NCBI GenBank assembly: GCA_021735165.1
Contig: JAIPHP010000001.1
Span: 23,510 to 87,509, forward strand
Reading direction: 5' to 3'
DNA from: Candidatus Woesearchaeota archaeon
Lineage (GTDB): Archaea; Nanobdellota; Nanobdellia; Woesearchaeales; 21-14-0-10-32-9
DNA: 64,000 nucleotides
Under the pieces are notes generated by a model, which was not told the origin of the DNA, did not search any database, and worked only from the letters and a program-made list of their open reading frames with translations. The translations under genes were made by a program, and so were the position numbers. The stretch's first letter is position 1. Each line of letters opens with the position of its first letter. Of this stretch, positions 1 through 39,561 are shown in pieces.

Positions 1-67
1 CTGCGGACTAAATTCTTTAATAAATACAACAACAGTATATGAAAGTCAAGAACACACAGAAAAATTC

Positions 68-424
68 ATGCAGGAATATGGCTCTTCAGACTTCTTATTC
101 TACAAACAACCAGACAACGCAATAATAGAGTGGAACTTAGTATTGTGGGACTTTTGGAACAACATAGAAACAACAAACAACAAACTAACAGAAGTCTGGG
201 CAGAAATAAACCTAAATGAAACCACAGGAAAAAACATAAACGGAAGCATAGTACCAAACGAAACTGCAACAGATACATCCATGCCAAAATCAACACCTCC
301 AAAAAACTACACGATACCCCTAAATACATACGACCTTCTAATCTGTGGAGATGGTGCTTGCAAATTCCCAGAACAAAACAACCCCGATAAACCACACTAT
401 TGCCTAACAGATTGCACACCATAA
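68..424 (+). CDS. hypothetical protein with Cys-rich C-terminus; frame is open back to window start so possibly 5'-partial
   Basis: ORF track; no in-frame stop between position 2 and the ATG at 68; no recognisable motifs. Confidence 0.3.
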   Translation: MQEYGSSDFLFYKQPDNAIIEWNLVLWDFWNNIETTNNKLTEVWAEINLNETTGKNINGSIVPNETATDTSMPKSTPPKNYTIPLNTYDLLICGDGACKFPEQNNPDKPHYCLTDCTP

Positions 425-502
425 AAAAACAACAAACAACACCCACAAGTAGAAACCTTTAAATACTAAACACTCATAAATACAAGTAAAAAGAGGGGAG
501 CA

Positions 503-934
503 ATGGGATACTCAGAAAATGAAATAATTACAACAGGAGTAGACAAACTAGTAGATTTCTTAAGAGGCAAAAAACAAATTGAACTTAAAGAAGCCGCAAA
601 AATGCTCCACGTACCCACAGAAATAGTGCAAAAATGGGTGGACTTCTTAATAGAAGAACACATCTTGGGAATGGAATACAAATTCACAACACCATACATC
701 TACCTAATAGAAGAAGAAAATAACAATAAAACAATAAAAGAACTAAAAAAAGAATTCCAAATCAAAGCAAAAAACAACAAATTAAACGAAACAAAATCAG
801 ACTTCTTATGGAAAAATCAAATACAACAAGCACTAACAAACAAAAAAAGCTTCTTTTACAAAGAAGCGGAAAAAAGACATCTAACAAACATAGACTACTT
901 ATGGGAAACATACAAAAAAATGGTGATGCAATAA
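503..934 (+). CDS. small hypothetical protein, possible helix-turn-helix, first gene of pilus-type operon
   Basis: ORF with SD-like gagggga 8 nt upstream of ATG; stop abuts next ATG at 935. Confidence 0.4.
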   Translation: MGYSENEIITTGVDKLVDFLRGKKQIELKEAAKMLHVPTEIVQKWVDFLIEEHILGMEYKFTTPYIYLIEEENNNKTIKELKKEFQIKAKNNKLNETKSDFLWKNQIQQALTNKKSFFYKEAEKRHLTNIDYLWETYKKMVMQ

Positions 935-1906
935 ATGAACACAACTGAAGAACTAGACTCATATATAGAAATGGACATAATACAATTCCTTGACAAAATA
1001 AGCGAAGCAAGCCAAATAGGAGACTATACATCAGAAAAACAACTACAAGAACTCCAAAAAGCATTAAACATAAAAGACACCCTATCAGCAATAAACACAA
1101 CACAAGAAGCAATACAAGAATTCAACCAAACTAATCAAACAGACCCCTACAAACAAATAAGACTAATAAAAATACAAGAAATAAGTGAAACCTTAACAGA
1201 ATACTGCAAAAAAAACAAAGACTCCCAAAAACTATGCAAAATAGCAGAAATGCTCAAAGATGAACTAGAAATAAAAAAAGACAAAACAGAAACAATAGAC
1301 ATACTACAAAAACTAGAACAAGAAAAACAAGAAAAACAAAACCAAAAACAAGAAAAATACTATCAAATAAAAACGCAACTAAACAAAAAATTAACAATAC
1401 TAAAAGAAATAATGACCACAAACTTACTAAAAAGAAACATACCTCAAGCCATAAACGCATACAAAAAAATGAAAATAATATTCACAAGATACCCTTCAAT
1501 ATACTTAGAAGAAAAAAAAGAACTATACAACGACCTAATAAGCTACTATATGCAAATTAAAAAAACAATGAAATACATAAAAGAAAAAGAAAAACGAGAC
1601 AAAATAATAAAAAAACAAAACGAAGAAAAACAACAAATAAAAATACAACAAATACACCTACAACAAATAGCCAACACAATACAAGAAATAAAAGAAGACG
1701 CCAAACAAGGAAGACTAGATGACGCAAAAAACAAAATAATAGAACTAAAAAGAATAAACTCGCAAATACCAAACAAATACACAACAATAAAAGAAACACT
1801 AAACAACAAAATAAACCTAATAAACGAGAGAATAGAATTCATAAAAAGATTTAGACAAACAAAAACACTAAATGAAACTCAAAAAACACAACAAATAACG
1901 AGCTAA
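935..1906 (+). CDS. low-complexity K/E/Q/N-rich coiled-coil protein
   Basis: 323-aa ORF directly after the previous stop in an AT-rich genome where random long ORFs are unlikely; strongly biased composition. Confidence 0.4.
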   Translation: MNTTEELDSYIEMDIIQFLDKISEASQIGDYTSEKQLQELQKALNIKDTLSAINTTQEAIQEFNQTNQTDPYKQIRLIKIQEISETLTEYCKKNKDSQKLCKIAEMLKDELEIKKDKTETIDILQKLEQEKQEKQNQKQEKYYQIKTQLNKKLTILKEIMTTNLLKRNIPQAINAYKKMKIIFTRYPSIYLEEKKELYNDLISYYMQIKKTMKYIKEKEKRDKIIKKQNEEKQQIKIQQIHLQQIANTIQEIKEDAKQGRLDDAKNKIIELKRINSQIPNKYTTIKETLNNKINLINERIEFIKRFRQTKTLNETQKTQQITS

Positions 1907-1911
1907 AAAAA

Positions 1912-3393
1912 ATGGAATCCCCAATAAGAAAAAAACTACTAGACAAATACACAACAACCATAAACAACATAAACATACAAATAGAAATAATAAGCGAAGA
2001 AGAAAAAGCAGTACCAACATACATAGTAAGCATAACAAACATATCAGAAACAACAAAACTAATACTAGAAAAAATAAGAGAAGAATTCATATCAAAACTA
2101 GATTTACAAGAACTAGAACAATCAAACACAAACTCAAACGAACCAACACTAAGAGATAAATTCTCAAAATCAATAGGAAAACTAATACAAAAATACTTCC
2201 CAGACACAGATCAAAAAACAAAAGAAATGCTAATAAACTACCTCCTAGAAGAAAACCTAGGACTAGGAAAAATAGATATCCTGTTAAAAGACCCACATTT
2301 AGAAGAAATAGTAATAAACAACCACACAGAACCAGTATGGGTATATCACAAAAAACACGGATGGCTTGAAACAAACATAAAAATAATGACTGAAGCAAGA
2401 ATAAGACACTACGCAACAATAATAGGCAGAGATGTAAACAAAGAAATAACAACACTAAACCCCCTAATGGATGCACACCTACTAAACGGAGACAGAGTAA
2501 ATGCAACACTAATACCAATAAGCACAAAAGGAAACACAATAACAATAAGAAAATTCGCAGAAGACCCATGGACAATAACCAAATTCATAAAAATGGGCAC
2601 AATAAGCATAGAAGCCGCATCCCTAATATGGTTAGGAATACAAAACGAATTAAGCATGCTCATAGCAGGAGGAACAGGATCTGGAAAAACAAGCATGCTA
2701 AACGTAGTAAGCAACTTTCTACCACCAAATCAAAGAATCATAAGCATAGAAGACACAAGAGAACTACAACTACCAAAAAACCTCCACTGGGTACCAATGG
2801 AAACAAGATTACCAAACCCTGAAGGAAAAGGCGGAGTAACAATGCTAGACCTACTAGTAAACAGCCTAAGAATGAGACCTGATAGGATAGTTGTTGGAGA
2901 AATAAGAAGAAAAGAAGAAGCACAAGTACTAATGGAAGCAATGCACACAGGACACTCAGTATATGCAACAATACACGCAAACAACGCAACAGAAACAATA
3001 ACAAGACTAACAAACCCACCAATAGAGATACCAAAACCAATGATCTCATCTCTATCAATGATTCTAGTACAAAACAGAAATAGACGAACAGGAAAAAGAA
3101 GAACACTGCAAATAGCAGAAATAACGCCCCAAGGAGACCCAAAAACAATATTGCAACTAAACGTAATGAAAGACAAACTAGAACAACATGAAGAACCAGA
3201 CACACTATACAAAACACTCTCACTATACACAGGAATGACAAAACAACAAATACAAGAAGACCTACTAAAAAAACAACAAATACTACGATGGATGATAAAC
3301 AACAACATAGAAAACATAGACCAAATAGGAAAAATAATGGCAAACTACTACCTAGGAAGACTTAAATACACCCAAAAACAAACAACAAAATGA
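1912..3393 (+). CDS. type II/IV secretion ATPase (VirB11/PilB/GspE/FlaI superfamily), archaeal type IV pilus assembly ATPase
   Basis: Walker A LIAGGTGSGKTS, Walker B-like VVGEIR, His-box region HTGHSVYATIHA, size about 490 aa; overlaps the next gene by ATGA. Confidence 0.9.
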   Translation: MESPIRKKLLDKYTTTINNINIQIEIISEEEKAVPTYIVSITNISETTKLILEKIREEFISKLDLQELEQSNTNSNEPTLRDKFSKSIGKLIQKYFPDTDQKTKEMLINYLLEENLGLGKIDILLKDPHLEEIVINNHTEPVWVYHKKHGWLETNIKIMTEARIRHYATIIGRDVNKEITTLNPLMDAHLLNGDRVNATLIPISTKGNTITIRKFAEDPWTITKFIKMGTISIEAASLIWLGIQNELSMLIAGGTGSGKTSMLNVVSNFLPPNQRIISIEDTRELQLPKNLHWVPMETRLPNPEGKGGVTMLDLLVNSLRMRPDRIVVGEIRRKEEAQVLMEAMHTGHSVYATIHANNATETITRLTNPPIEIPKPMISSLSMILVQNRNRRTGKRRTLQIAEITPQGDPKTILQLNVMKDKLEQHEEPDTLYKTLSLYTGMTKQQIQEDLLKKQQILRWMINNNIENIDQIGKIMANYYLGRLKYTQKQTTK

Positions 3394-4199
3394 GCTTAGC
3401 AGACATAATAGCATCAAAAAATCCGCATCTAAAAAAAGAATTAAAAGTTGCAAGAATAGAAAAAACACCTACAGAAATAGTTAAACAAAGCCTACAATTT
3501 GCAACATACACAACATTCGGATTCACATTCCTACTATTTCTATTCTTTCTAAAAGAAGGAACAGAACTAACATGGCTACTACTAATAGCCCCAATATTAT
3601 ACTACTTAATGTACAATTTCAACATGCTCAAAATAAAAAGCTCAATACTAAAAAGAAAAAAAGAAATTGACAAAGACGTATTATTCGCAGGAAGATACCT
3701 CCTAGTAAAACTAAACTCCGGACAACCCCTTATAAATGCTCTAATAGACGCATCAAAAAGTTATGGCGTAGCAAACAAATACTTTAAAGAAATAGTAAGA
3801 GAAATAGAACTTGGAAAACCCCTTGAAAACACACTAACAGAACAAGCAGAATACAGCCCATCAGAAAAATTCAGAAAAATACTCTTTCAAATAAGCAACG
3901 CACTAAAAATAGGAATAGACGTAACAGAATTCCTAGAAGCAACACTAGATGAAATAGCACAACAACAACTAATAGAAATAAACAGATACGGAAAAAAACT
4001 AAACTCCATAACACTATTTTATATGTTATTTGCAGTAGTAATGCCATCATTAGGAATCACAATAATAGTAATAGTATTAGGATTAGGAGGAAGCCCAATA
4101 GATAACAATTTTTTCGTAAGCTTACTATTCCTAATAACCTGCATCCAAATAATGTTCCTAGCAGTATACAAATCAATCAGACCAAACATAAACATATAA
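3390..4199 (+). CDS. TadC/FlaJ-like pilus platform membrane protein, N-terminal T2SS-F domain half
   Basis: T2SS-F-like soluble domain (SLLFAGRYLLVKLNSGQPLINALIDASKSY...) between TM helices; translationally coupled to the ATPase. Confidence 0.8.
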   Translation: MSLADIIASKNPHLKKELKVARIEKTPTEIVKQSLQFATYTTFGFTFLLFLFFLKEGTELTWLLLIAPILYYLMYNFNMLKIKSSILKRKKEIDKDVLFAGRYLLVKLNSGQPLINALIDASKSYGVANKYFKEIVREIELGKPLENTLTEQAEYSPSEKFRKILFQISNALKIGIDVTEFLEATLDEIAQQQLIEINRYGKKLNSITLFYMLFAVVMPSLGITIIVIVLGLGGSPIDNNFFVSLLFLITCIQIMFLAVYKSIRPNINI

Positions 4200-4298
4200 A
4201 AAAACGAAACAATTCGTACTGTCTCGCACAGTACTTAACATGCGTGCCAACCGAGCAAAACCAGTTGGACCAAACATAAACATATAAAAAAATGAAAC
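4180..4298. repeat. 31-bp near-perfect direct repeat (4180-4210 and 4268-4298, one mismatch) flanking a 57-bp GC-rich spacer with hairpin GTACTG-N7-CAGTAC (4216-4234)
   Basis: read directly; first copy supplies the stop of the upstream TadC half, and the single C-to-T difference in the second copy creates the ATG of the downstream half. Confidence 0.7.
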
Positions 4299-5341
4299 AA
4301 AAAAACCCATTAAAACAAAAAACAAATTTCCTAGCAGACTTTGGAAAATCACTAGTTCCAAAAAAATTTAGACCAAATCTAAGAACATATTTAGCAAAAG
4401 CAGGACATCCAGACGTACCATATTCATACTTTGGAATATTATTCTTTTTAGGAATAGGACTAACAGCCCTAATATACTTCCTTTCAGGATTTGCAACCGA
4501 ACTACAAAACAGACAAATAATACTACAAGGAATATTCTCATTCCTATTTTGGGTAATAACAGCAACAATAATTGTTACAATAATCATGGCAGGATACTAC
4601 TTCAAAACCAACATGAAAATATACAAAAGAACAAAAGAACTAGAATCAAATCTCCCAGAATACTTAGTACTAGTAAGCACAAATCTAAAAGGAGGATTAA
4701 GCTTTGAAAAAAGTCTATGGAACGCAATAAAACCAGAATTTGGAATCTTAGCAGAAGAAATGGGCATAATAAGCAAAAAAGTAATGACAGGACAAGACTT
4801 AACAGATGCCCTTTTAGAACTAGCACAAAAATATGAATCCCCAACAATGAGAAGAACAATAGACATAATACTTGGAGAAATACAATCAGGAGGACAAGTA
4901 GCGCACGTACTAGACCAAATAATAGAAAATCTAAGAAAAACAAAAATAATACAAGAAGAAATGGCTGCAAACACACTACTATTCACAATATTTATAGCAG
5001 CAATAGTCACAGTAATAAGCCCACTGCTCTTCGCACTAGCAAAAGTGCTTTTGAGCATATTAATACAAGTAAGCAAACAAGTAGCACCTGCAGTAGCACA
5101 AAGCAGAGGAGCTGGAGGATTCAAAATAAAAGAAATAACCCTATCACTAGACGCATTTAGAAACTTTTCATTGGCAGCATTATTCATAATATCGACAAGT
5201 GCAAGCATGATACTTAGCATAATACAAAAAGGAGATATAAAAGCAGGACTAAAATACATACCCTTCTTCATAGCAATAGCATTCACACTATACTTCATAT
5301 TCAGTTTAGCTCTAGGAAGCTTCTTCACACTAGGATTCTAA
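4292..5341 (+). CDS. TadC/FlaJ-like pilus platform membrane protein, C-terminal T2SS-F domain half
   Basis: second T2SS-F-like domain (LPEYLVLVSTNLKGGLSFEKSLWNAI...QSGGQVAHVLDQI) plus TM helices; together with 3390-4199 gives about 618 aa, typical of a single FlaJ/TadC. Confidence 0.8.
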   Translation: MKQKNPLKQKTNFLADFGKSLVPKKFRPNLRTYLAKAGHPDVPYSYFGILFFLGIGLTALIYFLSGFATELQNRQIILQGIFSFLFWVITATIIVTIIMAGYYFKTNMKIYKRTKELESNLPEYLVLVSTNLKGGLSFEKSLWNAIKPEFGILAEEMGIISKKVMTGQDLTDALLELAQKYESPTMRRTIDIILGEIQSGGQVAHVLDQIIENLRKTKIIQEEMAANTLLFTIFIAAIVTVISPLLFALAKVLLSILIQVSKQVAPAVAQSRGAGGFKIKEITLSLDAFRNFSLAALFIISTSASMILSIIQKGDIKAGLKYIPFFIAIAFTLYFIFSLALGSFFTLGF

Positions 5342-5491
5342 GTTTACATTCCTAAACTAACAACTAGTATCAAAAAACAAAAGAATCCTGACAACACATT
5401 AAACAAACAACATTTCAAAAAAACACTCATAGAAACATTAATATCCAAAACAAACTACAAAACATTGCAGACATAAAAGAAAAAATCAAAA

Positions 5492-5550
5492 AGCTCCCTG
5501 GTCTTTCGTAAGGGGGGAGGGTGGTTGCAGAAAAGAATCCGCAGGGAGCT
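5492..5550. terminator. 9-bp inverted repeat AGCTCCCTG/CAGGGAGCT with 41-nt G-rich loop (GGGGGGAGGGTGG) between convergent genes
   Basis: read directly; GC-rich island in AT-rich intergenic DNA; function as terminator is a guess. Confidence 0.3.
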
Positions 5551-5564
5551 CATGACAATGAAAC

Positions 5565-5990
5565 TTATAATTTCTTGAATGAAAATGATCTAGGAGGTCT
5601 TCTAATTTCTTGAAGCCATAACAAACCAATTTTCATCATATTCTTATTGAAATTCTCTGAAATCTTGTAAGTTTTCTTATACAAATCGTAATCTATAATA
5701 CCCATAGTTTTCATGGGAGTTAGGATCCTATCGTAAAATTGTCGTTTATTATATGATATGGGCACAGGTTTCTTCTTTATAGGATTCCTAGGATCAGGGT
5801 CCTCGGGAGCCACAAGCGTACCATCGTGAAGAGCTGTGGCAAATAAAGACATCTCAGTTTTGCCAATCTCACCGTCTTTTAACTTCATCTCCTCTATAAG
5901 CATTTGAGCAACAACAACCTGCTGTTTAGTACTAAATATAATCTCAAAAATGCTTTCTGGCATATTGTATTGATCAAAAAGTATTACCAT
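5565..5990 (-). CDS. hypothetical protein
   Basis: ORF only. Confidence 0.4.
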   Translation of the reverse strand: MVILFDQYNMPESIFEIIFSTKQQVVVAQMLIEEMKLKDGEIGKTEMSLFATALHDGTLVAPEDPDPRNPIKKKPVPISYNKRQFYDRILTPMKTMGIIDYDLYKKTYKISENFNKNMMKIGLLWLQEIRRPPRSFSFKKL

Positions 5991-6079
5991 AACACTACAT
6001 AAACACTACTAATATATAAATGTTTCGATTGGTATAGGGTTTCGTATACTGACATAGTGTTTGGTGAGGGTGTGTAGAT

Positions 6080-7174
6080 TTATTTATTAGCATATTTAAT
6101 ATAAATTCTTTTAAGGCTCCTAAAAATACAAATATACCTAAACCCAAATTTAAAAAGCATAAAAGATTTCCACGACAACCCCCTAAGCCTGTAAAAAGGC
6201 CTTAAAAATAAAAACTTGACAAACCCAGAAAAATAAATCGCATCCTTAGTATATGCACCAACACCGTTTGTTCCTCTCTTTGCACGCACAACATAATGAA
6301 ACACAAGATCCAAATCATTACAAAATTTTTTAGTTTTCCTAAAAACAGTCTCAAAATCAAATCTTTCAGCATAATAAACAGCTAAATATTTAAGAGCAGA
6401 ACTATACAAGGTGTCAAACAAAAAACTTTTTCTGAACTCATAATAAGTAGCAAGTCCTTCCTCGAGCTCATCATAAAATGCTAAACCGACAGAAAAAATT
6501 TCAAGACTTTTCTTACCCTCCTGAAACCTTCTGACATGAACACCCACTTCATGATAAAGCAAACTTATAACATCATCAACAACATATCTATCTTTTTTTC
6601 TAATATAAATCTTCATTTCAACTTTAGAAATTCTTGCATCACCAACCATATCGCTAGAAATTTCAACAGACCAACCAGACATATTATTAGAATTAAGATA
6701 AGAATAAAACACACTAAGCATCTCGTTCTCATTCAAAAACATCTTTTTTCTTTTTCTAAAAATCAAACCATTTAAACAAACAAACTTAGCCAACAAAAAA
6801 AACACAAAATTCGTATGACCATAAATTTTTAAAGAATAATTCTTAAAATCTTCTAAAGAAATATTATGAATTAAATTAATTAAAAATTCCAATTCTGAAA
6901 TTTTTTCAGAATAAATAAAATAAAAATCTTCATTCTTAAAAAAAGATAATTCTTCTTTAAGACTTATTAATTCAGATTCGCAGTCAGTGAGGTCACTACG
7001 AGAATACTCAAAAAAGTTTTCCGGTAAACAAAAATCATTCTTAAAAAAAAAATTCTTCTTATCATCAAAATAATTTAATTTAAAATATTCATATTCTTCA
7101 TCCAAACCATATTTGTAAATAAAATCACAAAATTTTTTATCAAATTCCTTTACATCAATTTTTTTTTGACTCAT
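6080..7174 (-). CDS. DUF1704-family HExxH zinc metallopeptidase (QEGLA-motif family; tyrosine/phenylalanine carboxypeptidase-like)
   Basis: LLYHEVGVHVRRFQEG (HExxH) followed by DELEEGLATYYEF (QEGLA-like motif); last gene of operon with two amidoligases, overlapping upstream gene by 20 bp. Confidence 0.7.
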   Translation of the reverse strand: MSQKKIDVKEFDKKFCDFIYKYGLDEEYEYFKLNYFDDKKNFFFKNDFCLPENFFEYSRSDLTDCESELISLKEELSFFKNEDFYFIYSEKISELEFLINLIHNISLEDFKNYSLKIYGHTNFVFFLLAKFVCLNGLIFRKRKKMFLNENEMLSVFYSYLNSNNMSGWSVEISSDMVGDARISKVEMKIYIRKKDRYVVDDVISLLYHEVGVHVRRFQEGKKSLEIFSVGLAFYDELEEGLATYYEFRKSFLFDTLYSSALKYLAVYYAERFDFETVFRKTKKFCNDLDLVFHYVVRAKRGTNGVGAYTKDAIYFSGFVKFLFLRPFYRLRGLSWKSFMLFKFGFRYICIFRSLKRIYIKYANK

Positions 7175-8036
7175 ACAAATCCATCAAATTGTCATGAAAT
7201 TTTTCTAAAACATCATACGCCTCCACATTCAAAGGCTTAACTATACTCGTACAACCAGGTGCAGAAGTATTAACTTCTATTAAATGATTTGATAAAATAT
7301 CAAGTCCTGCAAAATAAACACCCATATTTTTTAATTTTTTAGCCACAGCACATACAATAAACTCTTCTTTTGACGATAAAGGAAGATTAGCATAATTGCC
7401 TCCTGAAGAAATATTATTAACATATGTATTTTTATTTACTCTCCCTATACTGCCAAGAACATCACCGTTAAAAACAATAACCCTTTTATCACCATCATTT
7501 TCAATAAATTCTTCACATATATATCCTTGAGGATATTCTGAATGCATCACTAAATAATCTTTTAACTTTTCTTCCACAGGTTTAAACTTATCAAAAAAAA
7601 CAATTCCTTTCCCACCAGTACCCTCAATAGGCTTTATTATCAAATCTTTTTCTTTAGATAAGAATTTTTTTAAAGAACCAACATCATTATTTGAATAAAT
7701 AAAATGTTCTGGAAGATGCTCTTGAAAATAATTTGGCTCGAAAGTTTTAGGAGCAGACAACAAAACTTTGCTTGGAGGATTAATAAAAAAAATATCATTT
7801 TCAAAACGAGATAAATAAGAACTTAATTCTCTGTTAAAAGGATACATAAAATAAAACACAAAATCTTTTTTCTTTAGTTCGTCTAAATTAAGCGAATCAG
7901 GAGTATAAGAAACAACATTATGCCCTTTATCTTGTAAAAATTTAAAATGACCGTAATCTTCTATTTGATCTTCAGACTCCAATAACACATCATCCAATTT
8001 TTTTCTTAATATTAAACCTATATCCATATCAAACAC
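7155..8036 (-). CDS. ATP-grasp ligase (RimK / glutathione synthetase-like)
   Basis: IIKPIEGTGGKGIVF..., EEFIENDGDKRVIVFNGDVLGSIGR, GLDILSNHLIEVNTSAPG are typical ATP-grasp motifs. Confidence 0.85.
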   Translation of the reverse strand: MFDMDIGLILRKKLDDVLLESEDQIEDYGHFKFLQDKGHNVVSYTPDSLNLDELKKKDFVFYFMYPFNRELSSYLSRFENDIFFINPPSKVLLSAPKTFEPNYFQEHLPEHFIYSNNDVGSLKKFLSKEKDLIIKPIEGTGGKGIVFFDKFKPVEEKLKDYLVMHSEYPQGYICEEFIENDGDKRVIVFNGDVLGSIGRVNKNTYVNNISSGGNYANLPLSSKEEFIVCAVAKKLKNMGVYFAGLDILSNHLIEVNTSAPGCTSIVKPLNVEAYDVLEKFHDNLMDLYESKKN

Positions 8037-9221
8037 TCACGAAATCAAAATTTTATTTTTATTCCAATCTTTTTTTATACTTTTAAAAACATTTTTCACA
8101 TATAAAGCCTTTTCTTTTTGAGACATATCAGAATACAATAAATTCTTTGAAATACTAGTTCTTTTAAGCAAATAATTTTTCTTCAAATAATCAGCAAAAA
8201 ACAATTCCTGGGAAGACATATCAGAACTGCAAAAATCAAAAACATTAACTGCCAAATCAAAAACATCATCTGATGATAAACCCTCCAACATAGCACTATT
8301 AGATAAATATTTTATTTTTTCAGAAGCAACATCTGTATTATCAGTACCTAAAAAATTTTCAAAAATATATTCATTTGATAAATTCAGTCTTTCAATTTTT
8401 CTTATTGAAGCAGAAGCTAAAGATATAAGACCAAAAATCAAATACAAATCAGGATTAGAGCCAAACCCCCTATACTCTATAGTTTTAAACTTCTTATTAA
8501 ATCTAACAGGTCCCCAAACAGATGAATATTTGTCCCCATACTTAACATAATCATCTCCATAAACAAGAGAAACCTCTCTAAAATCATTAAAACTTTTTTG
8601 TAAAAAATTTTCTAAAAAAATATAATCAGAAAAAACCCCTTGTAAATCCCCTTGATTTGGAAAATTATTGTAAAGAATTTTTCTATAAATAAAAGATCTC
8701 AAATTAAGTATTTCAAAATTATCAGAAAATTTGAAATCAGATTTTTTTGCTTTCCCAACAACAGGTGAAAATACAACGCCTAATGAATCGAATATATTAA
8801 GAAAATTATATAATCTTAAATTTGAATAATCTTCTTCTCTTTCATCAAAATGAAGATGAACCGCCATTATACTTCCAGATAAATAATACACTTCTTCACC
8901 AAGCATATTTTTTTTTAAATTATAATTTTGTTTATCCAATATTTCACTTTTAAAATTAAAATTAAAAGGATTGTCAATAGGTAAAAAATCATACCCTGAA
9001 TCATTTAACAAAATATCTAGTTTTTCTGTAAACTCACATAACTCATCAAAAACTTCAACTATATTTCCAGGAGTCCCTGAAAATTCTATTATTGATTTGC
9101 TGCAATCCAAGTGAAGAGGTAATCCATTTTCATTACAATAATTAACAATATTGACAGAATTATTTGAAGGATTAAAATCCTTATCTACCAGTAAAAATTC
9201 ATATTCTATACCAACATTCAT
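8037..9221 (-). CDS. GCS2-family carboxylate-amine ligase (YbdK / glutamate-cysteine ligase family 2)
   Basis: N-terminal VGIEYEFLLVD matches the GCS2 LGIELEMQVV signature; about 394 aa; abuts the ATP-grasp gene with no gap. Confidence 0.75.
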   Translation of the reverse strand: MNVGIEYEFLLVDKDFNPSNNSVNIVNYCNENGLPLHLDCSKSIIEFSGTPGNIVEVFDELCEFTEKLDILLNDSGYDFLPIDNPFNFNFKSEILDKQNYNLKKNMLGEEVYYLSGSIMAVHLHFDEREEDYSNLRLYNFLNIFDSLGVVFSPVVGKAKKSDFKFSDNFEILNLRSFIYRKILYNNFPNQGDLQGVFSDYIFLENFLQKSFNDFREVSLVYGDDYVKYGDKYSSVWGPVRFNKKFKTIEYRGFGSNPDLYLIFGLISLASASIRKIERLNLSNEYIFENFLGTDNTDVASEKIKYLSNSAMLEGLSSDDVFDLAVNVFDFCSSDMSSQELFFADYLKKNYLLKRTSISKNLLYSDMSQKEKALYVKNVFKSIKKDWNKNKILIS

Positions 9222-9440
9222 ATCTCAATCACTCTTTAATGTGTTAAATAACCCCAAAAAAAGGTTCGAATCAAAATAAAATACTACATTAATAAGCAAT
9301 AGTTGACAAACATAACTATATAAATCTTTCTAAACTAAAATAAACACATTAAAAGCATCAATAATAAGAAATAACTGGCATTAATCCATACTATTTCAAA
9401 AAGAAAGCTCAAATTAACCTAATTTTATTTCTGAAAAACC

Positions 9441-9449
9441 TTTATATAA
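9441..9449 (+). promoter_or_regulatory. TATA box TTTATATAA with purine-rich BRE-like GAAAAACC upstream, 22-30 bp before the ATG at 9471 (leaderless-type promoter)
   Basis: read directly; spacing typical for archaeal promoters. Confidence 0.4.
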
Positions 9450-9470
9450 TCTTCCTAAGTCTTTTGAATT

Positions 9471-11030
9471 ATGAATCTCAAAAAAGAACTATCAAAATTC
9501 AAACCAGTGCAATTAGAAAGCAGATTTTCAGAACTTGAGAAATGGGAAAAAGAAGTCGTTTTGAAACTTGTACAGGTTTCTAAAATCACAAGCGAAATAT
9601 TCTTTGATCAAACATATTCAAAAAACAAAGAAGCATACATAAAAGTAATAGAAGAAGGAGACATAGACAAACTAAAATTCTTTGAATTCATGAAAGGACC
9701 ATTTAACAGAATAAAACATAATGAATCTTTTGTTTTTGGACATAAAAAGCCGTTAGGATCAAACTTTTATCCAGAAGATATGTCAAAAGACGAATTTGAA
9801 AAACACATAAAAGAACATCCAGAAGACAAAGAAAAATTCACATCAGAATACACACTAATAAGAAGAAACAAAAAAGGAGAACTAATAGCAATTCCTTACT
9901 CAGAAGCATACAATGAACAATTAAAAAAAGCATCAGACTTACTAAAAGAAACAGCAAACATTTCTAAGGACAAAACTCTAAAAAAATACTTATCACAGTT
10001 AAGCGAATCAATTCTAAAAAATGATTACTTCCAATCAGACTGTGCTTGGATGGATTTGAATTCAAAACTCGAACCACTAATCGGACCATATGAAGTCTAC
10101 GAAGATGAATTATTCGGATACAAAGCAAGCTTTGAATCAGTAATATCTATTAAGGATAAAAAAGAAACAGAAAAATTAAAACACCTAGAAGAACTAATGT
10201 TAGAATTTGATTCATACCTTCCAATAAAAACACCATTTCCAAGAAAAGGAAAACACTCACCGACAATAGTTGTGAATGGAATACACTCAGGAGGAGACTG
10301 CAGAGCAGGAATACACTTTGTCGCATTTAACTTACCAAACGATGAAAAAGTAAGAGACTTAAAAGGATCAAAAAAAGTAATGTTCAAAAACATAATGGAA
10401 GCAAAATTTTATTATTGTTCCGAGCCAATATGCAAAGAAGTACTAAAAAAAGAACAACACAACCTTATAAGTTTTGACTCTTATTTTATGCACGTTGTTT
10501 TACATGAAATAAGTCATGGAATCGGACCAGGAAAGATATTTAATGACCAAAAAGAAACAACTGTAAACAAAGCACTAAAAGAAACATACTCAACAATAGA
10601 AGAACTAAAAGCAGACATTTGCGGAGTATACTCCTCTTTTTTGCTAGAAGAGAAAAAAATCATGACAAAAAAAGAAGTTAAAAAATTAATCGCATGTTTT
10701 TTAGCAATGACATACAGATCTTTAAGATTCGGATTAAATGAAGCACATGCAGGATCAAACCTAATAATATTAAATTACTTCAAAGAAAAAGGAAACCTTA
10801 TTTATGATAAAAAAGAAAATAATTACGCAGTGAACTTTGAATGTATAAAAGATACGGTAAAAGAATTAGTAACAGAAATTCTCACGATACAATCAAATGG
10901 AGACTACAAAAGAGCAAAACAATTCATGGCAAAATACAAAACTGTGAATGGAGAAATAAAAAATATGCTCAAAAAGATGAAACATATACCAACAGATATA
11001 AATATAAAATACGAATTAGATGAACAATGA
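9471..11030 (+). CDS. M49 (dipeptidyl-peptidase III)-like zinc metallopeptidase
   Basis: VLHEISHGIG (HExxH pentapeptide variant of HExxGH) followed about 40 aa later by EELKADICG, matching the EEcKAD second zinc-ligand motif of DPP III. Confidence 0.5.
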   Translation: MNLKKELSKFKPVQLESRFSELEKWEKEVVLKLVQVSKITSEIFFDQTYSKNKEAYIKVIEEGDIDKLKFFEFMKGPFNRIKHNESFVFGHKKPLGSNFYPEDMSKDEFEKHIKEHPEDKEKFTSEYTLIRRNKKGELIAIPYSEAYNEQLKKASDLLKETANISKDKTLKKYLSQLSESILKNDYFQSDCAWMDLNSKLEPLIGPYEVYEDELFGYKASFESVISIKDKKETEKLKHLEELMLEFDSYLPIKTPFPRKGKHSPTIVVNGIHSGGDCRAGIHFVAFNLPNDEKVRDLKGSKKVMFKNIMEAKFYYCSEPICKEVLKKEQHNLISFDSYFMHVVLHEISHGIGPGKIFNDQKETTVNKALKETYSTIEELKADICGVYSSFLLEEKKIMTKKEVKKLIACFLAMTYRSLRFGLNEAHAGSNLIILNYFKEKGNLIYDKKENNYAVNFECIKDTVKELVTEILTIQSNGDYKRAKQFMAKYKTVNGEIKNMLKKMKHIPTDINIKYELDEQ

Positions 11031-11620
11031 AAATACTAATATTCACAGATTTACATGCCCAATTTCAATACATAGAAGAATTAAAAGAAAAAGCAAAAGA
11101 TGTCGACTTAATAATAAGCCCTGGAGACCATACATTATTTGGAGAAGGAACAAAAGAATTCTTTGACTTTCTTGAAGCACAAAACAAACCTTGTTTAATA
11201 CTGCATGGAAACCACGAATCAAGCAAAGAAACAAAAGAACAGTGCGAAAAACACAAAAACATAGAATTCATACACAAAAAATACATGCACTACAACAACA
11301 TCTTATTCATAGGTCACGGCGGAGGAGGATTCACCTCTCGCTATCCAAGCTTTGAAAAATTAAGCAAAGAATTCTCAGATGCAATGAAAACAGCTAAAAA
11401 AACAATACTGATAACGCACGCACCACCAATAAACACGAAATTAGACTTAGTGCCCGGAGTAGGACATGTAGGATCTGAAAGTTATAGAGAATTCATAGAA
11501 ATAAATCAACCAAACATATGTGTTTGCGGACACATACATGAAGGCTTTGAAAAAGAAGACAAAATAGGAAAAACAAGAATAATAAATCCCGGACCAAAAG
11601 GAAAAATAATAGAAATCTAA
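11027..11620 (+). CDS. calcineurin-like metallophosphoesterase (YfcE-type)
   Basis: DLHAQ, GDHTLFG, GNHES, GHGGGG, ITHAPP, CGHIHEG motifs; start overlaps previous stop (ATGA). Confidence 0.85.
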   Translation: MKILIFTDLHAQFQYIEELKEKAKDVDLIISPGDHTLFGEGTKEFFDFLEAQNKPCLILHGNHESSKETKEQCEKHKNIEFIHKKYMHYNNILFIGHGGGGFTSRYPSFEKLSKEFSDAMKTAKKTILITHAPPINTKLDLVPGVGHVGSESYREFIEINQPNICVCGHIHEGFEKEDKIGKTRIINPGPKGKIIEI

Positions 11621-12357
11621 GCTCTTAAAAGCTTAATAAAACCTCCATATTTATCTTTTGCAAATTCAACAAACGAATCTTCATCCTGAATATGTTCTTC
11701 AGAAGGAAAATAAACACTCACAATATTCATGCGATTTTTTTTACTAGTATAAAACTTTCCAACAGCATTACACGTAGGTCCTTGGCAACGGATAGGCAAT
11801 AATCCAATTAGCATATTAAAGTTTTTTGAAGCAATTTCGTCCAAAATCATTTTATATTCTCCCGCACAACCAGGATCTAATAAATATTTTTTTGCAAAAT
11901 GTTCTCTGTATTTGCTTTCAAGAAAAAAACAATCAGAGCCAGATGCCAATAAATTATCAGGCGTTAAATTAAATTCGTTTAACGCACTCAAAAAATCTCC
12001 TGTGGCCAGTCCAAATTCAATACTTTTCAAAACAACATTTTTTGTTTTTTTAGATTCATCATCGCTTTTCATATACCAATTTTTATCACTCATTCTTGAA
12101 AAATCATCAACAAGATAAATAATTTTAGCTTCTTTGTTTAAATCTTTTGCAAAATGAACCAAATGCGCGCCTATTTCTAAAGTTTTTTTTGAAAAAATCC
12201 CAAAACTCCCCATTTCACAAGGATTAAAAGCCCCAACACCATATTCATTAATAGGATGATGCCCTGCAATTATTGCAATATTATTTCCCGTATTTCTCAC
12301 ATGTTGTTCTAAAGATTTTTTAACATCTTTCAAATTTGCCAATATTGTTTTATTCAT
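11617..12357 (-). CDS. hypothetical protein
   Basis: ORF; no confident family. Confidence 0.4.
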   Translation of the reverse strand: MNKTILANLKDVKKSLEQHVRNTGNNIAIIAGHHPINEYGVGAFNPCEMGSFGIFSKKTLEIGAHLVHFAKDLNKEAKIIYLVDDFSRMSDKNWYMKSDDESKKTKNVVLKSIEFGLATGDFLSALNEFNLTPDNLLASGSDCFFLESKYREHFAKKYLLDPGCAGEYKMILDEIASKNFNMLIGLLPIRCQGPTCNAVGKFYTSKKNRMNIVSVYFPSEEHIQDEDSFVEFAKDKYGGFIKLLRA

Positions 12358-12454
12358 AACTGCGAAGTAGTCTCATCCAATATATTAAATTAAGTATGGT
12401 TTTTTACTAAATAAGTGTAAAATTATTTAAAGAAAAACAAATATTTACTATTAA

Positions 12455-13420
12455 ATGAACTTAAAACTAGACAAAATCGATAAAAGAATATTATATGAAC
12501 TAGACAAAAATGCGAGAATACCAGATACAAAACTAGCAAGAATTGCAAAAAAAAGCAAAGAATCAATAAGATATAGAATAAAAAAATTACAAGAACAAAA
12601 CATAATAAAAGGATTTACAATTTGGGTAGATCCCACAAAACTCGGATATAATTCAGCAAAGATTTATCTAAAATTAGCAAACAAACCAGAAAAAAAGAAA
12701 GAAATGATTAACGAATTAAAAAAAGAAAAAAAATTATTTTGGCTTGGAACCGCCGATGGCGCATGGGATTTAGGACTAACATACTTTGTAAAAAACAACA
12801 GAGAATTCTATGAAACAAAAAATAAACTTTTTTCAAAATACAAAGACATAATAATAGAAACCCGCACAGCAGTACTTGTAAGCGTACACTACTCAAACAA
12901 AACATATTTTTATAACACCCAAAACGAATGGAACACAATTTTTGAAAAACAGGAAAACATAATTATTGAAGAAATAGAAAAGAAAATACTAAATGAACTA
13001 TTTCAAAACTCAAGAATAAACATAACAGAAATAGCAAGAAAACACAACAGCACAACAGACATAATAAGAAACAGAATAAAAAAATTAGAAAAACAAAAAA
13101 TAATATCAAGATACAACGCAATAATAGATCACAACAACCTCGGATATGAATTCTTTAAAACGTTTCTCTATTTCAAAAACTTAAGCCAGAAAGATGAAAC
13201 CAAATTAATGGAATATTCACTACAAAACGAAAAAATAATTCACCTCGTAAAACAAATAAGTCCTTGGGATGTAGAACTAGAAATAATGTGTGAAAACTAC
13301 TTAGAATACAACCAAATAATATCAGAACTAACACAAGAATTCGCAGAAGTAATAAATAAAATTGAAACTGCAATAATGCATGAAGACCACATATTTCCAA
13401 GCAAAAAAATAATATTTTAA
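12455..13420 (+). CDS. tandem Lrp/AsnC-family transcriptional regulator (two HTH-AsnC plus RAM-like units)
   Basis: two copies of the Lrp HTH pattern (DKIDKRILYELDKNARIPDTKLARIAK... and EKKILNELFQNSRINITEIARKH...) each followed by a small ligand-binding-like region. Confidence 0.7.
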   Translation: MNLKLDKIDKRILYELDKNARIPDTKLARIAKKSKESIRYRIKKLQEQNIIKGFTIWVDPTKLGYNSAKIYLKLANKPEKKKEMINELKKEKKLFWLGTADGAWDLGLTYFVKNNREFYETKNKLFSKYKDIIIETRTAVLVSVHYSNKTYFYNTQNEWNTIFEKQENIIIEEIEKKILNELFQNSRINITEIARKHNSTTDIIRNRIKKLEKQKIISRYNAIIDHNNLGYEFFKTFLYFKNLSQKDETKLMEYSLQNEKIIHLVKQISPWDVELEIMCENYLEYNQIISELTQEFAEVINKIETAIMHEDHIFPSKKIIF

Positions 13421-29864: not shown

Positions 29865-30182
29865 TTGTTCCCCCTCCGTGGTTTTTTTCTCGATTGCGAA
29901 TCGGGTACTGGGAAATACCTCCTTCGTATCACCAAAATTGCAAGATCATGATAAAGCGCATAGCTAACGCTATCTTCTGCTGTCCATGTGTTGTTAAAAC
30001 GCTTATTTCCCCAAGCTGAAAAAATCAACCCTTGGCTCCGATCAGAACCGCCAAATCCATCTCGGAAATCAATTATTTACTCGCTTTTTTGGCAACTTTA
30101 TAATTAACTTAAATAGTCTCTGAAGTTATATATAAATATTTCTATACTCTAAAGCATATTTTCAATAATACAGTTTTCACAA

Positions 30183-30713
30183 CTATTTAGAAAAAAGAAT
30201 TTTCTTCTGTCCAGGATACAATCCCATAGACACCATTTGTTCATATTGCTCAGGCAACAAGACCAAATGTATTATATTAAACTTATATTTCTGCTTAATA
30301 TCCACAATTTTCTCTCTAATAGAATCCTTATCAATATCATCCCCCATTATCAAAATACTAGCCTTATCTTTTTCTTCTTTACCGTGCAAAACAGCCATTT
30401 GAACGCCTAAAACCCCTGAAATGAACTGAATAAATTCTTGAATTGCAGAAGTCTTATCTTCCAACAAATCTATCAAAAAAGCACTATTCTCGGGATTAAA
30501 CCTATATGTTTTTAGATGCTTCACCCTAATTTCAGAAATAAGATCTAACTTCAAAAGAGTGCCTAAAATCCTATGCACCGTCGCAGGAGGAACCCTTGTC
30601 AATTTAGCAATCTCCCTTAAATAATACTCATCAGAGGAATTATTAATAAACAATTTTAAGACCTTTATCATCTTTTTATCAAATAAACTTTCTAAAATAT
30701 CCTTCTTGTCCAT
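30183..30713 (-). CDS. winged-helix transcriptional regulator with C-terminal accessory domain
   Basis: YLREIAKLTRVPPATVHRILGTLLKLDLI HTH pattern. Confidence 0.5.
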   Translation of the reverse strand: MDKKDILESLFDKKMIKVLKLFINNSSDEYYLREIAKLTRVPPATVHRILGTLLKLDLISEIRVKHLKTYRFNPENSAFLIDLLEDKTSAIQEFIQFISGVLGVQMAVLHGKEEKDKASILIMGDDIDKDSIREKIVDIKQKYKFNIIHLVLLPEQYEQMVSMGLYPGQKKILFSK

Positions 30714-30828
30714 AAAAACATTTATAGACGAGAACTATATAAACCTTTCTATTTTTGAAACAGCGTTCCAAAATTGAAACAAGGTTTTTTCGACATATTT
30801 TTAATAAGAGACAAAAACAAAAAAACTC

Positions 30829-31836
30829 ATGACCAAACAACAAAACATTCTAACAACACAAAAACAAAACTACCCAGAACTAGCAAAATATGAAATTCTA
30901 CGAACCATAAAAAAATACCTCAAAAACACACCAGAGCAACATAACAACATAACAATAATAAAAAATCCACAAAACAAAAAAAACAAAATAATGAATGCTC
31001 TAAACAAACTCGCCCTAACAAAAAACGCATACCAAATCCTAGAAACTCAAAAAAACTACAAAACTCTCCTAAAAAAAATCCAGACAACAAAATACCCAGA
31101 AATATCAAAACCAAAAAAAACATACAAAATAACGATAATAAACACTCAAAAAAAACAAGAAACTAAAAACATAGACGAAATAGTAACCAACCTAAAACAA
31201 AACAACAAACTAGGAAAAGTCAATTTGAAGAACCCAGATACAGAAATAACAATCATAAAAGAAGCAAAAAACAACCACCTATGCATAAAAATATGGGAAA
31301 ATAAAGAAAAATACCAAGAACGAAAAAACGACAAAAGACCAGCCCCACACCCAACAAGCATGAACCCAGAACTAGCAAGAGCACTAATAAACATCTCAGA
31401 AGCAAAAAACAACATGCTAGACCCCTTCTGCGGAAGCGGAGGCATACTAATAGAAGCCGGGAAAATACTCAAAAACATAAAAGGAGGAGATATAGATTCT
31501 GAAATGATACTAAAAGCAAAAATAAATCTAGAACACTACGGAATACAAAAATATGAACTTAAAACGCAAAAAGCAACTGAATGGAAAGAAAAAACAGAAT
31601 CCATAATAACAGACATACCCTACGGAAAAAGCTCAAAACTAAAACAAAAAATACAAGAACTAGTATCTGACTTTTTAAAAAATGCAAAAACAACCACCAA
31701 AGACATAATACTGGTGCACCCAGAAAACAAAAAAATAACAAAAACAATACAAAAAAGTAAATGGCGCCCCCAAAAAATAATCAAAATAAAAATACACAAA
31801 ACGCTAACAAGACAAATAACCCACCTAAAATTATAA
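30829..31836 (+). CDS. THUMP-associated RNA (tRNA m2G-type) methyltransferase, Trm14/UPF0020-like, with N/K-rich low-complexity N-terminus
   Basis: DPFCGSGGILIEA SAM-binding motif I and DIPYG catalytic (D/N)PP(Y/F)-type motif. Confidence 0.65.
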   Translation: MTKQQNILTTQKQNYPELAKYEILRTIKKYLKNTPEQHNNITIIKNPQNKKNKIMNALNKLALTKNAYQILETQKNYKTLLKKIQTTKYPEISKPKKTYKITIINTQKKQETKNIDEIVTNLKQNNKLGKVNLKNPDTEITIIKEAKNNHLCIKIWENKEKYQERKNDKRPAPHPTSMNPELARALINISEAKNNMLDPFCGSGGILIEAGKILKNIKGGDIDSEMILKAKINLEHYGIQKYELKTQKATEWKEKTESIITDIPYGKSSKLKQKIQELVSDFLKNAKTTTKDIILVHPENKKITKTIQKSKWRPQKIIKIKIHKTLTRQITHLKL

Positions 31837-32343
31837 CGAAGAAATTCTAGAATAAACAGAACTCATAGCCTGATCATCATAACCAACACTATTAAGAGAA
31901 TTAATTAACAAATTCAACTTAGAGTAAAGAAACTGCAACAAATCGCCTTTTAATTCTGATAAACCAGGATGCTGGGCTAACAACTCCAACAATTCCTCCA
32001 AAGTATCACTCATCAACTGCAATCTCTCTTTCTTATCCATAATATAATCATTATCATTAAACATAATGTAATCTTTATTTTGAGCCTCAATACCCATAAT
32101 AGTATCAACATCCACAATTAAGCTATCAATCTTAGTCTTAACCCTTGTAAAAGTATTCTCTAACTCCGCCAACCTAGCACCAACCCCTGCAACATCATTA
32201 GATCTTAAAGCCTCACTCAAAGAATACAACTCTTTCTCCAAGCGACCAATCAAATCAAAAATTTGTTTAACAACAGACATATCAGATTGCTCAATCTGAA
32301 CCATACGAGGCTCAGGCCTCTTAAATAAAGCAAAAGCCATCAA
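31831..32343 (-). CDS. hypothetical coiled-coil protein
   Basis: ORF, overlaps upstream gene by 4 bp. Confidence 0.35.
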   Translation of the reverse strand: MMAFALFKRPEPRMVQIEQSDMSVVKQIFDLIGRLEKELYSLSEALRSNDVAGVGARLAELENTFTRVKTKIDSLIVDVDTIMGIEAQNKDYIMFNDNDYIMDKKERLQLMSDTLEELLELLAQHPGLSELKGDLLQFLYSKLNLLINSLNSVGYDDQAMSSVYSRISSL

Positions 32344-33929: not shown

Positions 33930-34111
33930 CTCAGTCCACGGATATAAACAAATAAAAACATAGGTATATAAAGATTTTGATTAAACTGTTATTAAACTCA
34001 AACAACAAATCATCCACCAAAAAAACTAAACATAAAAAAACAACTAAACATAAGCAAACAAAACTAAATACACGCCAAAAATTAACAAAATGCTTAAAAT
34101 ACCCAAAAAAA

Positions 34112-35769: not shown

Positions 35770-35939
35770 ACAAGAATCGCTTTTTTTAATCTTTTTACCA
35801 GTATTAACATGAATAACAGACGCCTTAGTCTTAACAAAAATATCAACTGTGTTGCTTCCAACCGAAATTATATCAAACAGACACCCTCACCTCTAAATAA
35901 AAGATTAAAAACAACACTATATAAATTTTACCACAAAAT

Positions 35940-36078: not shown

Positions 36079-36143
36079 GTTAGTGACACGCTCCACAAAA
36101 AAAAACAAATAACACACAAAAAACAACGTCATAAACAAAAAAC

Positions 36144-37169: not shown

Positions 37170-37219
37170 CTAAACCATATAAAAATATTAACATCTAAAC
37201 CTCGAAAAAAAAAGAATTA

Positions 37220-39557: not shown

Positions 39558-39561
39558 AAAA

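Follow-up and report, generated by a model that had tools for sequence, protein, structure and literature searches.

What does a small-genome archaeon make, or trim, with two different ATP-dependent ligases and a metallopeptidase encoded back to back? The question is raised by a 64-kb stretch of a 99-kb contig from a Candidatus Woesearchaeota archaeon (hereafter the window, in whose positions all coordinates are given unless another contig is named), which carries on its minus strand a GCS2-type carboxylate-amine ligase gene (P1), an ATP-grasp ligase gene (P2) and a gene for a gluzincin of the MATCAP/DUF1704 family (P3). An original prediction, made from the letters of the window, had placed these three genes in an operon, had connected such neighborhoods with the making or trimming of small peptide metabolites or C-terminal tags (gamma-glutamyl or RimK-like additions), had described the peptidase as an HExxH enzyme, and had argued from the retention of the trio in a reduced genome that it serves a specific function. 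We find that the family assignments hold and that the trio recurs as a unit in other DPANN archaea, where a GCS2-type ligase gene followed by an ATP-grasp ligase gene forms the invariant core. Our favored but tentative interpretation, which we hold at somewhat less than even confidence, is that the trio is a self-contained accessory cassette for the stepwise synthesis of a gamma-glutamyl-type short peptide and for its dedicated C-terminal trimming.

Calling of open reading frames (ORFs) confirmed three minus-strand genes at 8037-9221, 7155-8036 and 6080-7174, just where they had been predicted (Table 1). At approximately 27% GC a stop codon is expected by chance about every 12 codons, by our estimate; because P1, P2 and P3 each have homologues in other contigs at 29-52% identity, we regard them as real genes rather than chance ORFs. 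The operon-like coupling proposed for them was also borne out. A GTG directly follows the P1 stop codon (TGA) and an ATG lies 9 nt further on, leaving a gap of 0-9 nt, and P2 and P3 overlap by 20 nt. The longest ORF for P2 runs from the GTG at 8036 and encodes 293 aa; the NCBI call starts at the ATG at 8027, which is the same point at which the P2 homologues start. P1-P2-P3 are predicted to form one transcription unit. A candidate archaeal TATA box, TTTATATA, sits just within the conserved flank, at the boundary of the cassette, an assignment that is tentative in an AT-rich genome. An Rfam scan of 5300-12500 gave no significant match, and thus no riboswitch or leader RNA at the cassette; the region upstream of P1 likewise lacks conservation among the loci compared, and on these two grounds a riboswitch or conserved leader RNA was rejected. 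A role for the trio in anti-phage defense was similarly rejected, since PADLOC returned no defense-system match for P1, P2 or P3.

Table 1. Positions of the cassette genes and of neighboring features in the window.
Feature	Positions	Strand	Description
P1	8037..9221	-	394 aa, first cassette gene, GCS2/YbdK-type carboxylate-amine ligase; MCF7871438.1, NCBI name 'hypothetical protein'
P2	7155..8027	-	290 aa, GshB-like ATP-grasp ligase; MCF7871437.1, NCBI name 'ATP-grasp domain-containing protein'
P3	6080..7174	-	364 aa, MATCAP/DUF1704 gluzincin; MCF7871436.1, NCBI name 'flavohemoglobin expression-modulating QEGLA motif protein'
Replaceable cassette	6082..9311		without counterpart in the closest relative, L040, by blastn
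Candidate archaeal TATA box TTTATATA	9317..9324	-	96 nt 5' of the P1 ATG, by sequence reading
orf141	5565..5990	-	141 aa
M49-like peptidase gene	9471..11030	+	DPP III family
Metallophosphoesterase gene	11027..11620	+	calcineurin-like
Type-IV-pilus/archaellum-like locus	1912..5341	+	T2SSE-type ATPase and two T2SSF/TadC-like membrane proteins

P1 diverges more than any other member of its tiny clade, and when used alone as a query it found no Pfam match at E<=0.1 and nothing in the PDB; its match to TIGR02050 reached only E=0.012 (15 bits against a cut-off of 176), and it scored below every glutamate-cysteine ligase model in NCBIfam. A word-indexed search of 5.8 billion proteins returned P1 itself and one protein 50% identical to it. 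Seeded with these two sequences, an exhaustive search by HMMER through 1.84 billion representatives recovered a family of 58 proteins at E<=1e-3, 21 of them at E<=1e-10. The identity of P1 emerges from these relatives: PF04107 (GCS2) is matched by 48 of 54 homologues and TIGR02050 (the YbdK family) by 15 of 16 close ones, the best at 2e-17, and the family profile finds the YbdK structure 1r8g at 2.4e-22 and plant glutamate-cysteine ligase at 1.5e-8. An AlphaFold2 model of P1 was built from the 54-sequence alignment (predicted local distance difference test score, 94.9; predicted template-modeling score, 0.93). Foldseek placed 1tt4 and YbdK 1r8g at the top of its list for this model, with template-modeling scores of 0.64-0.72, followed by plant glutamate-cysteine ligase (2gwc), GshF and E. 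coli GshA and then by glutamine synthetases and PafA (4bjr). Within the family E46, H122 and E249 are invariant, and conservation reaches 90% or more at E6, E8, H124 and R251; these residues align to the ELE, E, H-H and E-R positions of the YbdK active site, which bind metal and ATP. We are confident, on the strength of the model, that P1 adopts the glutamate-cysteine-ligase fold of YbdK/GCS2, in which every metal ligand is predicted to be present, and judged by its homologues it clearly belongs to GCS2 at the level of the family, as originally proposed. GshA of the haloarchaeal and cyanobacterial type also falls within the GCS2/YbdK group. Standard annotation has overlooked the P1 clade, which is rare (58 among 1.84 billion) and carries the label 'hypothetical protein'.

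The ATP-grasp assignment of P2 is likewise upheld, by a match to PF02955 (GSH-S_ATP) at 8.5e-29 and 100.6 bits, against a cut-off of 23; RimK (PF08443, 4.4e-10), YheCD and the other ATP-grasp models of Pfam match more weakly, and no TTL match was found in Pfam. The comparison with individual structures gives the same ranking. As a single sequence P2 matches E. coli GshB (1gsa) at 1e-16 and RimK at 1e-7, and a profile (A5) built from nine archaeal P2 homologues and two proteobacterial 'glutathione synthase' paralogues matches 1gsa over its full length at 1.5e-50 and RimK at 4e-16, the N-terminal part of the 1gsa match possibly being fed by the two bacterial sequences, which carry GSH-S_N. The ligase had been called RimK-like, a description that these values do not favor. 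Nevertheless, P2 falls below the equivalog cut-offs for GshB, scoring 107 bits against 272 for NF003573 (glutathione synthase) and 104 bits against 299 for TIGR01380; it also reaches 76 bits with the NCBIfam model for MptN and 65 bits with that for the RimK family (TIGR00768), which is below the cut-off of 143. In the 293-aa numbering from the GTG, the motifs GTGGKG (139-144), GDKR (182-185), GLD (244-246) and EVN (254-256) indicate that the P-loop and Mg ligands of an ATP-grasp enzyme are present. The N-terminal domain of GshB (PF02951) was not detected in the window P2 by Pfam. The A5 profile aligns from GshB residue 13, with a gap of approximately 28 residues in the N-domain, and the RKDPP segment, which is kept in the P2 homologues of two sister loci (L027 and L028), reads F-M-Y-P-F-N in the clade of the window. 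Because it lies below the equivalog cut-offs, with a shorter N-domain and a replaced RKDPP segment, we describe P2 as GshB-like rather than as a demonstrable glutathione synthetase; profile scores place it nearer to glutathione synthetase than to RimK, without making it an equivalog of either.

P3 matches PF08014 (MATCAP, formerly DUF1704) over residues 42-322 at 8e-23 and 81.4 bits, against a cut-off of 27, in agreement with the family named in the original prediction. Against TIGR02421 (QEGLA) it scores 92 bits, under the cut-off of 339. The statement that DUF1704 covers both MATCAP and the bacterial QEGLA proteins agrees with the profile matches and with the alignment to human MATCAP (KIAA0895L, 7z5g; 9e-11), in which HEVGVH of P3 aligns with HEIGTH and EEGLA with EEGLA. 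The active-site motifs, HEVGVH at 208-213 and EEGLA at 238-242, are both invariant in five archaeal homologues. They correct the motif assigned earlier: P3 has HExxxH followed by EEGLA, not HExxH. Furthermore, P3 reads EEGLA rather than QEGLA and, at 364 aa, has no N-terminal extension. By profile score P3 truly belongs to the PF08014 MATCAP/DUF1704 family and is not a bacterial QEGLA equivalog; as a homologue of metallocarboxypeptidases it is predicted to have carboxypeptidase activity. A full-text literature search returned nothing on the function of prokaryotic DUF1704/QEGLA proteins or on their linkage to ligases. Another contig (L039, 698-1563) encodes an archaeal MATCAP homologue that stands alone, with 28% identity to P3 and no ligase upstream; in the approximately 870 bp that precede it no gene was called and translation of the three forward frames gave no ORF.

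To place the trio in a wider context, loci of the P1 family were collected by exact-protein look-ups and by scanning DNA for a degenerate pattern of the clade-specific motif WGPxRxNxxxxTxExR, and the matches were then compared with P1 by tblastn. Ten of the 19 pattern matches are true P1 genes by tblastn; the other loci (L004, L006, L011, L014, L015, L017-L019 and L021), in which tblastn with a threshold of E<=1e-3 finds nothing that matches P1, are presumably due to chance. The order P1-P2-P3 was found in at least five other DPANN contigs, so that co-conservation of the trio was recovered by comparison of gene neighborhoods; no archaeal example that has been characterized came to light. It recurs, at 29-39% identity, in L002/L003, in L005 (Woesearchaeota MAG.257), in L012 (from soda-lake sediment) and in L016=L025/L026, as well as in L010, which ends within P3; L001 holds the first two genes of the trio and ends within P2. 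Neither of the two outcomes named beforehand as fatal to the prediction, assignment of the genes to unrelated families and absence of co-conservation, was observed. The genes flanking the trio (metallophosphoesterase, M49 peptidase, orf141 and the T2SS genes) are also syntenic across Woesearchaeota, so part of the co-conservation could reflect synteny of the lineage, and in the extreme case the three genes would be mere neighbors with unrelated functions. We regard this as highly improbable, given that the genes abut or overlap and are gained and lost as one 3.2-kb block, that the pairing of GCS2 with ATP-grasp occurs in other contexts and phyla (for example in Aenigmatarchaeota, L007), and that the pairing of a GshB-like ligase with MATCAP recurs in Proteobacteria.

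In every informative locus of the P1 family the gene immediately downstream encodes an ATP-grasp ligase, whose subtype varies, and in the sister cassettes the genes that follow vary too. The ligase is GshB-like in L022/L009, where DUF3335 (C39-like) and GATase_4 genes come next, and in L028, where it is followed by Amidohydro_2, by a protein of 360 aa with HEFGHH and by DUF3335; a glutaredoxin gene lies 1.5 kb from the L028 genes. It is GshB-like also in L027, which has a convergent, weakly ChaC-like gene (E=0.024) and an M49 peptidase gene upstream. In L023/L024 a YheCD-like ligase precedes Peptidase_S66 (LD-carboxypeptidase), and in L007=L020 (Aenigmatarchaeota) a YheCD-like ligase precedes AstE/AspA; L008/L013 and L031 have a circularly-permuted/GspS-like ATP-grasp. 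Because the ATP-grasp gene always follows P1 while the hydrolase varies, we view the invariant core as a GCS2-type ligase followed by an ATP-grasp ligase, to which interchangeable hydrolases are attached. S66, AstE/AspA, EgtC-type GATase, N-formylglutamate amidohydrolase (FGase) and ChaC enzymes act on small peptides or on N-acyl-Glu/gamma-Glu compounds, not on proteins, and most of the interchangeable hydrolases belong to families that break C-terminal or gamma-glutamyl/N-acyl-Glu bonds in small substrates.

The ChaC-like gene (L027, 7436-7975, minus strand) is convergent with the GshB-like ligase gene and overlaps it by 4 nt; its 179-aa product has a YGSL motif, and its match to ChaC (gamma-glutamylcyclotransferase) lies under the Pfam cut-off. 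If real, the match would point to a gamma-glutamyl product. The 360-aa protein (L028, 10645-11727, plus strand) has no significant Pfam match; its HEFGHH and a downstream SEGFA resemble the HExxxH...EEGLA layout of P3, and it may be a very divergent gluzincin that replaces MATCAP in that locus. A 44-aa ORF upstream of P1 in L023/L024 was considered as a precursor or carrier peptide and was rejected, being of low complexity and having no counterpart in the window.

The linkage of an ATP-grasp ligase gene to a MATCAP gene occurs in both archaea and bacteria. A tblastn search of PLSDB with P3 matched 53 replicons, the bacterial proteins being approximately 24% identical to P3. In all four rhizobial/Burkholderiales replicons examined (Shinella, Sinorhizobium medicae, Roseateles and Mesorhizobium) the gene order is FGase, QEGLA protein (617-630 aa) and 'glutathione synthase', the last of these consisting of GSH-S_N and GSH-S_ATP. 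A Vibrio replicon encodes FGase and MATCAP as fused domains. Overall, the bacterial MATCAP-family peptidases have 617-663 aa and an N-terminal extension, which in Vibrio is the FGase domain.

The folds, the intact catalytic motifs, the gene layout, the order of P1 before the ATP-grasp gene, the linkage to hydrolases acting at C termini and the gain and loss of the genes as a block are the observations from which we infer an order of reactions, a gamma-glutamyl chemistry, a small-molecule substrate and a role for P3. By analogy with its characterized relatives, P1 would activate a carboxylate, perhaps the gamma-carboxylate of glutamate, as an acyl-phosphate and join it to an amine, forming the first amide bond. 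P2 would then phosphorylate the C-terminal carboxylate of the P1 product and add one amino acid, much as GshB joins gamma-Glu-Cys to Gly. P3 would take off the C-terminal residue, whether for turnover, recycling or proofreading of the product or of over-extended forms. The product would be a gamma-glutamyl-type dipeptide or tripeptide, or else a peptidyl conjugate whose last residue is acidic or small. We favor a small peptide for three reasons: the hydrolases of the sister and bacterial cassettes are small-substrate enzymes, P2 is GshB-like and not RimK- or TTL-like, and the surrounding genes include no candidate for a protein or peptide substrate.

One sub-case of this reading is the synthesis of canonical glutathione (gamma-Glu-Cys-Gly) by an archaeal GshA and GshB, with P3 degrading glutathione. 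The pairing and order of the genes match those of gshA-gshB, members of the P1 family match glutamate-cysteine ligase models and the best match of P2 is E. coli GshB; a glutaredoxin gene lies 1.5 kb from the L028 cassette and a weakly ChaC-like gene lies beside that of L027. If the product were glutathione-like, the cassette would represent a GshA/GshB-type two-step route in archaea. We nonetheless consider glutathione itself improbable, since P2 scores 107 rather than 272 bits and P1 falls under every glutamate-cysteine ligase model, the N-domain of GshB was not detected in the window P2 and RKDPP is replaced in its clade, the ligase subtype is swapped in sister cassettes, and no glutathione-dependent enzyme was seen by Pfam in the immediate neighborhood in the window.

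The presence of a MATCAP homologue raises another explanation, reversible tailing of protein C termini, in which P2 would be a writer that adds Glu or another residue, like RimK on S6 or TTL on tubulin, and P3 an eraser, like MATCAP, which detyrosinates or deglutamylates tubulin, with P1 initiating a gamma-linked isopeptide bond in the manner of PafA-type GS-fold ligases. Both the tubulin tyrosination cycle and RimK systems work by such a pairing of ligase and carboxypeptidase. P3 can be aligned to human MATCAP with the catalytic motifs conserved, P2 also matches RimK (PF08443 at 4.4e-10; RimK structures at 1e-7), PafA (4bjr) is among the distant fold matches of P1, and ATP-grasp and MATCAP genes are paired in archaea and bacteria alike. 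On the other hand, no candidate target was found and no conserved small ORF lies beside P1; the conserved neighbor, orf141, is preceded by a TATA box of its own and varies in its basic C-terminus. Moreover, P2 is much nearer to GshB than to RimK and has no TTL match in Pfam, and the sister-cassette hydrolases (S66, AstE/AspA, GATase_4 and FGase) are small-substrate enzymes. Taken together, these points make tailing unlikely in our estimation. A broader form of the idea, that prokaryotic MATCAP homologues and their linked ATP-grasp ligases are an ancient writer/eraser pair at the protein C-terminus and the forerunner of the tubulin tyrosination/glutamylation cycle, with the GCS2 ligase supplying the gamma-linked initiating bond, is a speculation to which we assign a low probability. 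Were the writer/eraser reading true, it would give archaea their first reversible system of C-terminal tailing.

The genomic setting of the trio bears on a further explanation. The closest relative found, L040 (GCA_021736975.1), has flanks 77-81% identical at the nucleotide level (M49, 80%; orf141, 94%) and carries two glycosyltransferase genes (GT4/GT1) in the same slot as the trio. In a blastn comparison of the two, homology ends at 6081, the P3 stop, and restarts at 9312. The 3.2-kb cassette has a GC content of 26.5%, against a window mean of 30.8% (standard deviation, 1.8); only 1.6% of windows of this size have a GC content that low. Relative to the syntenic contig L025, P1, P2 and P3 are 35%, 39% and 35% identical, below the flanks at 49-82% (T2SSE, 79%; T2SSF, 64% and 62%; orf141, 82%; M49, 52%; metallophosphoesterase, 49%), and the cassette is the fastest-evolving portion of the syntenic block. 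Given the glycosyltransferases in the slot of L040, the low GC content and the 58-member size of the P1 family, we regard the trio as a rare, replaceable low-GC accessory cassette and not as a retained core function. The earlier argument from retention in a reduced genome to a specific function is left unsupported by the glycosyltransferases of L040 and by the rarity and low GC content of the cassette.

The occupants of this slot could mean that the trio is one of several interchangeable surface-variation modules, its ligases adding amino acids to a carboxylated sugar or polymer (a glycan, an S-layer or pilin glycoprotein, or a teichuronopeptide-like polymer) and its peptidase editing them. 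ATP-grasp ligases are known in flagellin-glycan and capsule/teichuronopeptide pathways. Consistent with such a role, the two glycosyltransferases of L040 stand in exactly the slot of the trio, the slot adjoins the type-IV-pilus-like T2SSE/T2SSF locus, and the cassette is low in GC, fast-evolving (35-39% identity against 49-82% for its neighbors) and variable in content between genomes. However, a shared slot does not establish a shared function. The trio-type cassettes examined contain no glycosyltransferase, sugar-modifying enzyme, flippase or membrane protein, and P1-P3 have no obvious signal peptide or transmembrane segment by eye, which is not a formal prediction. We consider peptide decoration of the cell surface to be quite unlikely.

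Several of these observations, with others, weigh against the small-peptide cassette that we favor. A ligase and a carboxypeptidase in one operon are formally opposed, and the logic of a reversible tag fits them equally well; the glycosyltransferases in the L040 slot are a hint of a cell-surface role over a soluble metabolite. No transporter, riboswitch or glutathione-using enzyme was seen beside the window cassette with Pfam and Rfam. The 107 bits of P2 are set against a GshB equivalog cut-off of 272, and because its score is so far under the cut-off and it lacks RKDPP and approximately 28 N-domain residues, its acceptor need not be gamma-Glu-Cys. Similarly, the natural substrates of YbdK-type enzymes are poorly defined, and the characterized members of the P3 family are eukaryotic MATCAPs only, which act on the protein C-terminus rather than on small peptides.

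The slot itself, between the M49/metallophosphoesterase pair and orf141, is a hot spot of gene content in Woesearchaeota: it holds the trio in the window (6082-9311), the two glycosyltransferases in L040 (6487-8909) and variant cassettes elsewhere, and thus bears on how small-genome DPANN archaea vary their accessory metabolism or surface. A second difference between the two contigs lies at 9577-11750 of L040, where extra radical-SAM and CN_hydrolase genes separate orf141 from T2SSF; the window has only approximately 140 bp there. The product of orf141, which has no Pfam, NCBIfam or PADLOC match, is an unusually conserved lineage-specific protein that always flanks the slot, being 73-94% identical across Woesearchaeota contigs in which the neighboring genes are only 30-80% identical. 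As read from the sequence, it has its own TATA box approximately 25 nt upstream. It was considered as a tagged substrate or as a fourth member of the operon and was rejected in view of this TATA box, its variable basic C-terminus and its persistence where glycosyltransferases replace the trio. On the other side of the slot, the M49-like peptidase has HEISHG (HExxH) rather than the canonical HExxGH, together with EELKAD, and the start of the metallophosphoesterase gene overlaps its stop by 4 nt. This pair, or the phosphoesterase alone, lies divergently beside P1 in most loci. Both genes were taken as flanking rather than as members of the cassette since they are kept in L040 without the trio, although M49 may still be functionally linked to it. 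The pilus-like T2SSE/T2SSF locus that adjoins the cassette shows 62-85% identity in relatives. Along the plus strand of the window the AT skew rises to 0.55 at its start (1-4000) and the GC skew falls to -0.43 around 34-36 kb (within 30000-40000); these skews probably reflect a coding-strand purine bias in an AT-rich genome.

As a discrete 3.2-kb unit of three genes with clean boundaries and intact predicted active sites, the cassette is experimentally tractable, and it can be set beside several known systems. With gshA-gshB, a two-ligase route to a tripeptide (PMC7278568), it shares a ligase of the GS/GCL fold followed by a GshB-family ATP-grasp, with the catalytic residues intact in both window proteins. 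A 2020 review of archaeal thiols reported GshA-family matches scattered in archaea, including DPANN, with no archaeal GshB hits apparent (PMC7278568). The window differs from the GshA/GshB system in that both of its ligases lie far under the equivalog cut-offs, the P2 clade is without RKDPP and approximately 28 N-domain residues, a carboxypeptidase is co-encoded and the sister cassettes swap the ATP-grasp subtype. The cassette therefore resembles gshA-gshB plus a peptidase, with neither ligase passing the equivalog test. The proteobacterial triad of FGase, QEGLA protein (TIGR02421/DUF1704) and 'glutathione synthase' (PRK12458-type), of which no characterization was found in the literature, similarly places a MATCAP-family peptidase beside a GshB-like ligase and a further amide-bond enzyme. 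There, however, the third partner is a hydrolase (FGase) whereas that of the window is a GCS2 ligase, the peptidase is longer (617-663 versus 364 aa) and the ligase keeps GSH-S_N.

The tubulin cycle of TTL and MATCAP offers a third comparison. MATCAP has only recently been recognized as a tubulin detyrosinase, and the eukaryotic TTL and MATCAP genes are not linked. In common with that cycle, the window encodes a MATCAP homologue with HExxxH and EEGLA, and an ATP-grasp ligase that would extend a C-terminus is paired with a carboxypeptidase that would shorten it; unlike in that cycle, P2 is GshB-like and not of the TTL family, P3 is without a microtubule-binding context, and no conserved candidate substrate ORF was found near the cassette. 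The linkage of prokaryotic MATCAP relatives to GshB-like ligases gives a concrete, testable starting point for tracing the family's ancestral activity. RimK-like ligases (RimK itself, which polyglutamylates S6, and MptN, CofF and LysX) are also ATP-grasp enzymes, which extend a terminal carboxylate by an amino acid, and P2 has weak matches to PF08443 and TIGR00768; it differs in its score (65 versus 143 bits) and is consistently nearer to GshB. Finally, Iyer, Abhiman, Burroughs and Aravind reportedly described in 2009 gene neighborhoods that join ATP-grasp and GS/GCS-like amidoligases to peptidases whose folds are unrelated and that were predicted to make peptide metabolites or tags. Amidoligase-peptidase neighborhoods are a known, largely predicted class, of which the trio of the window is a variant.

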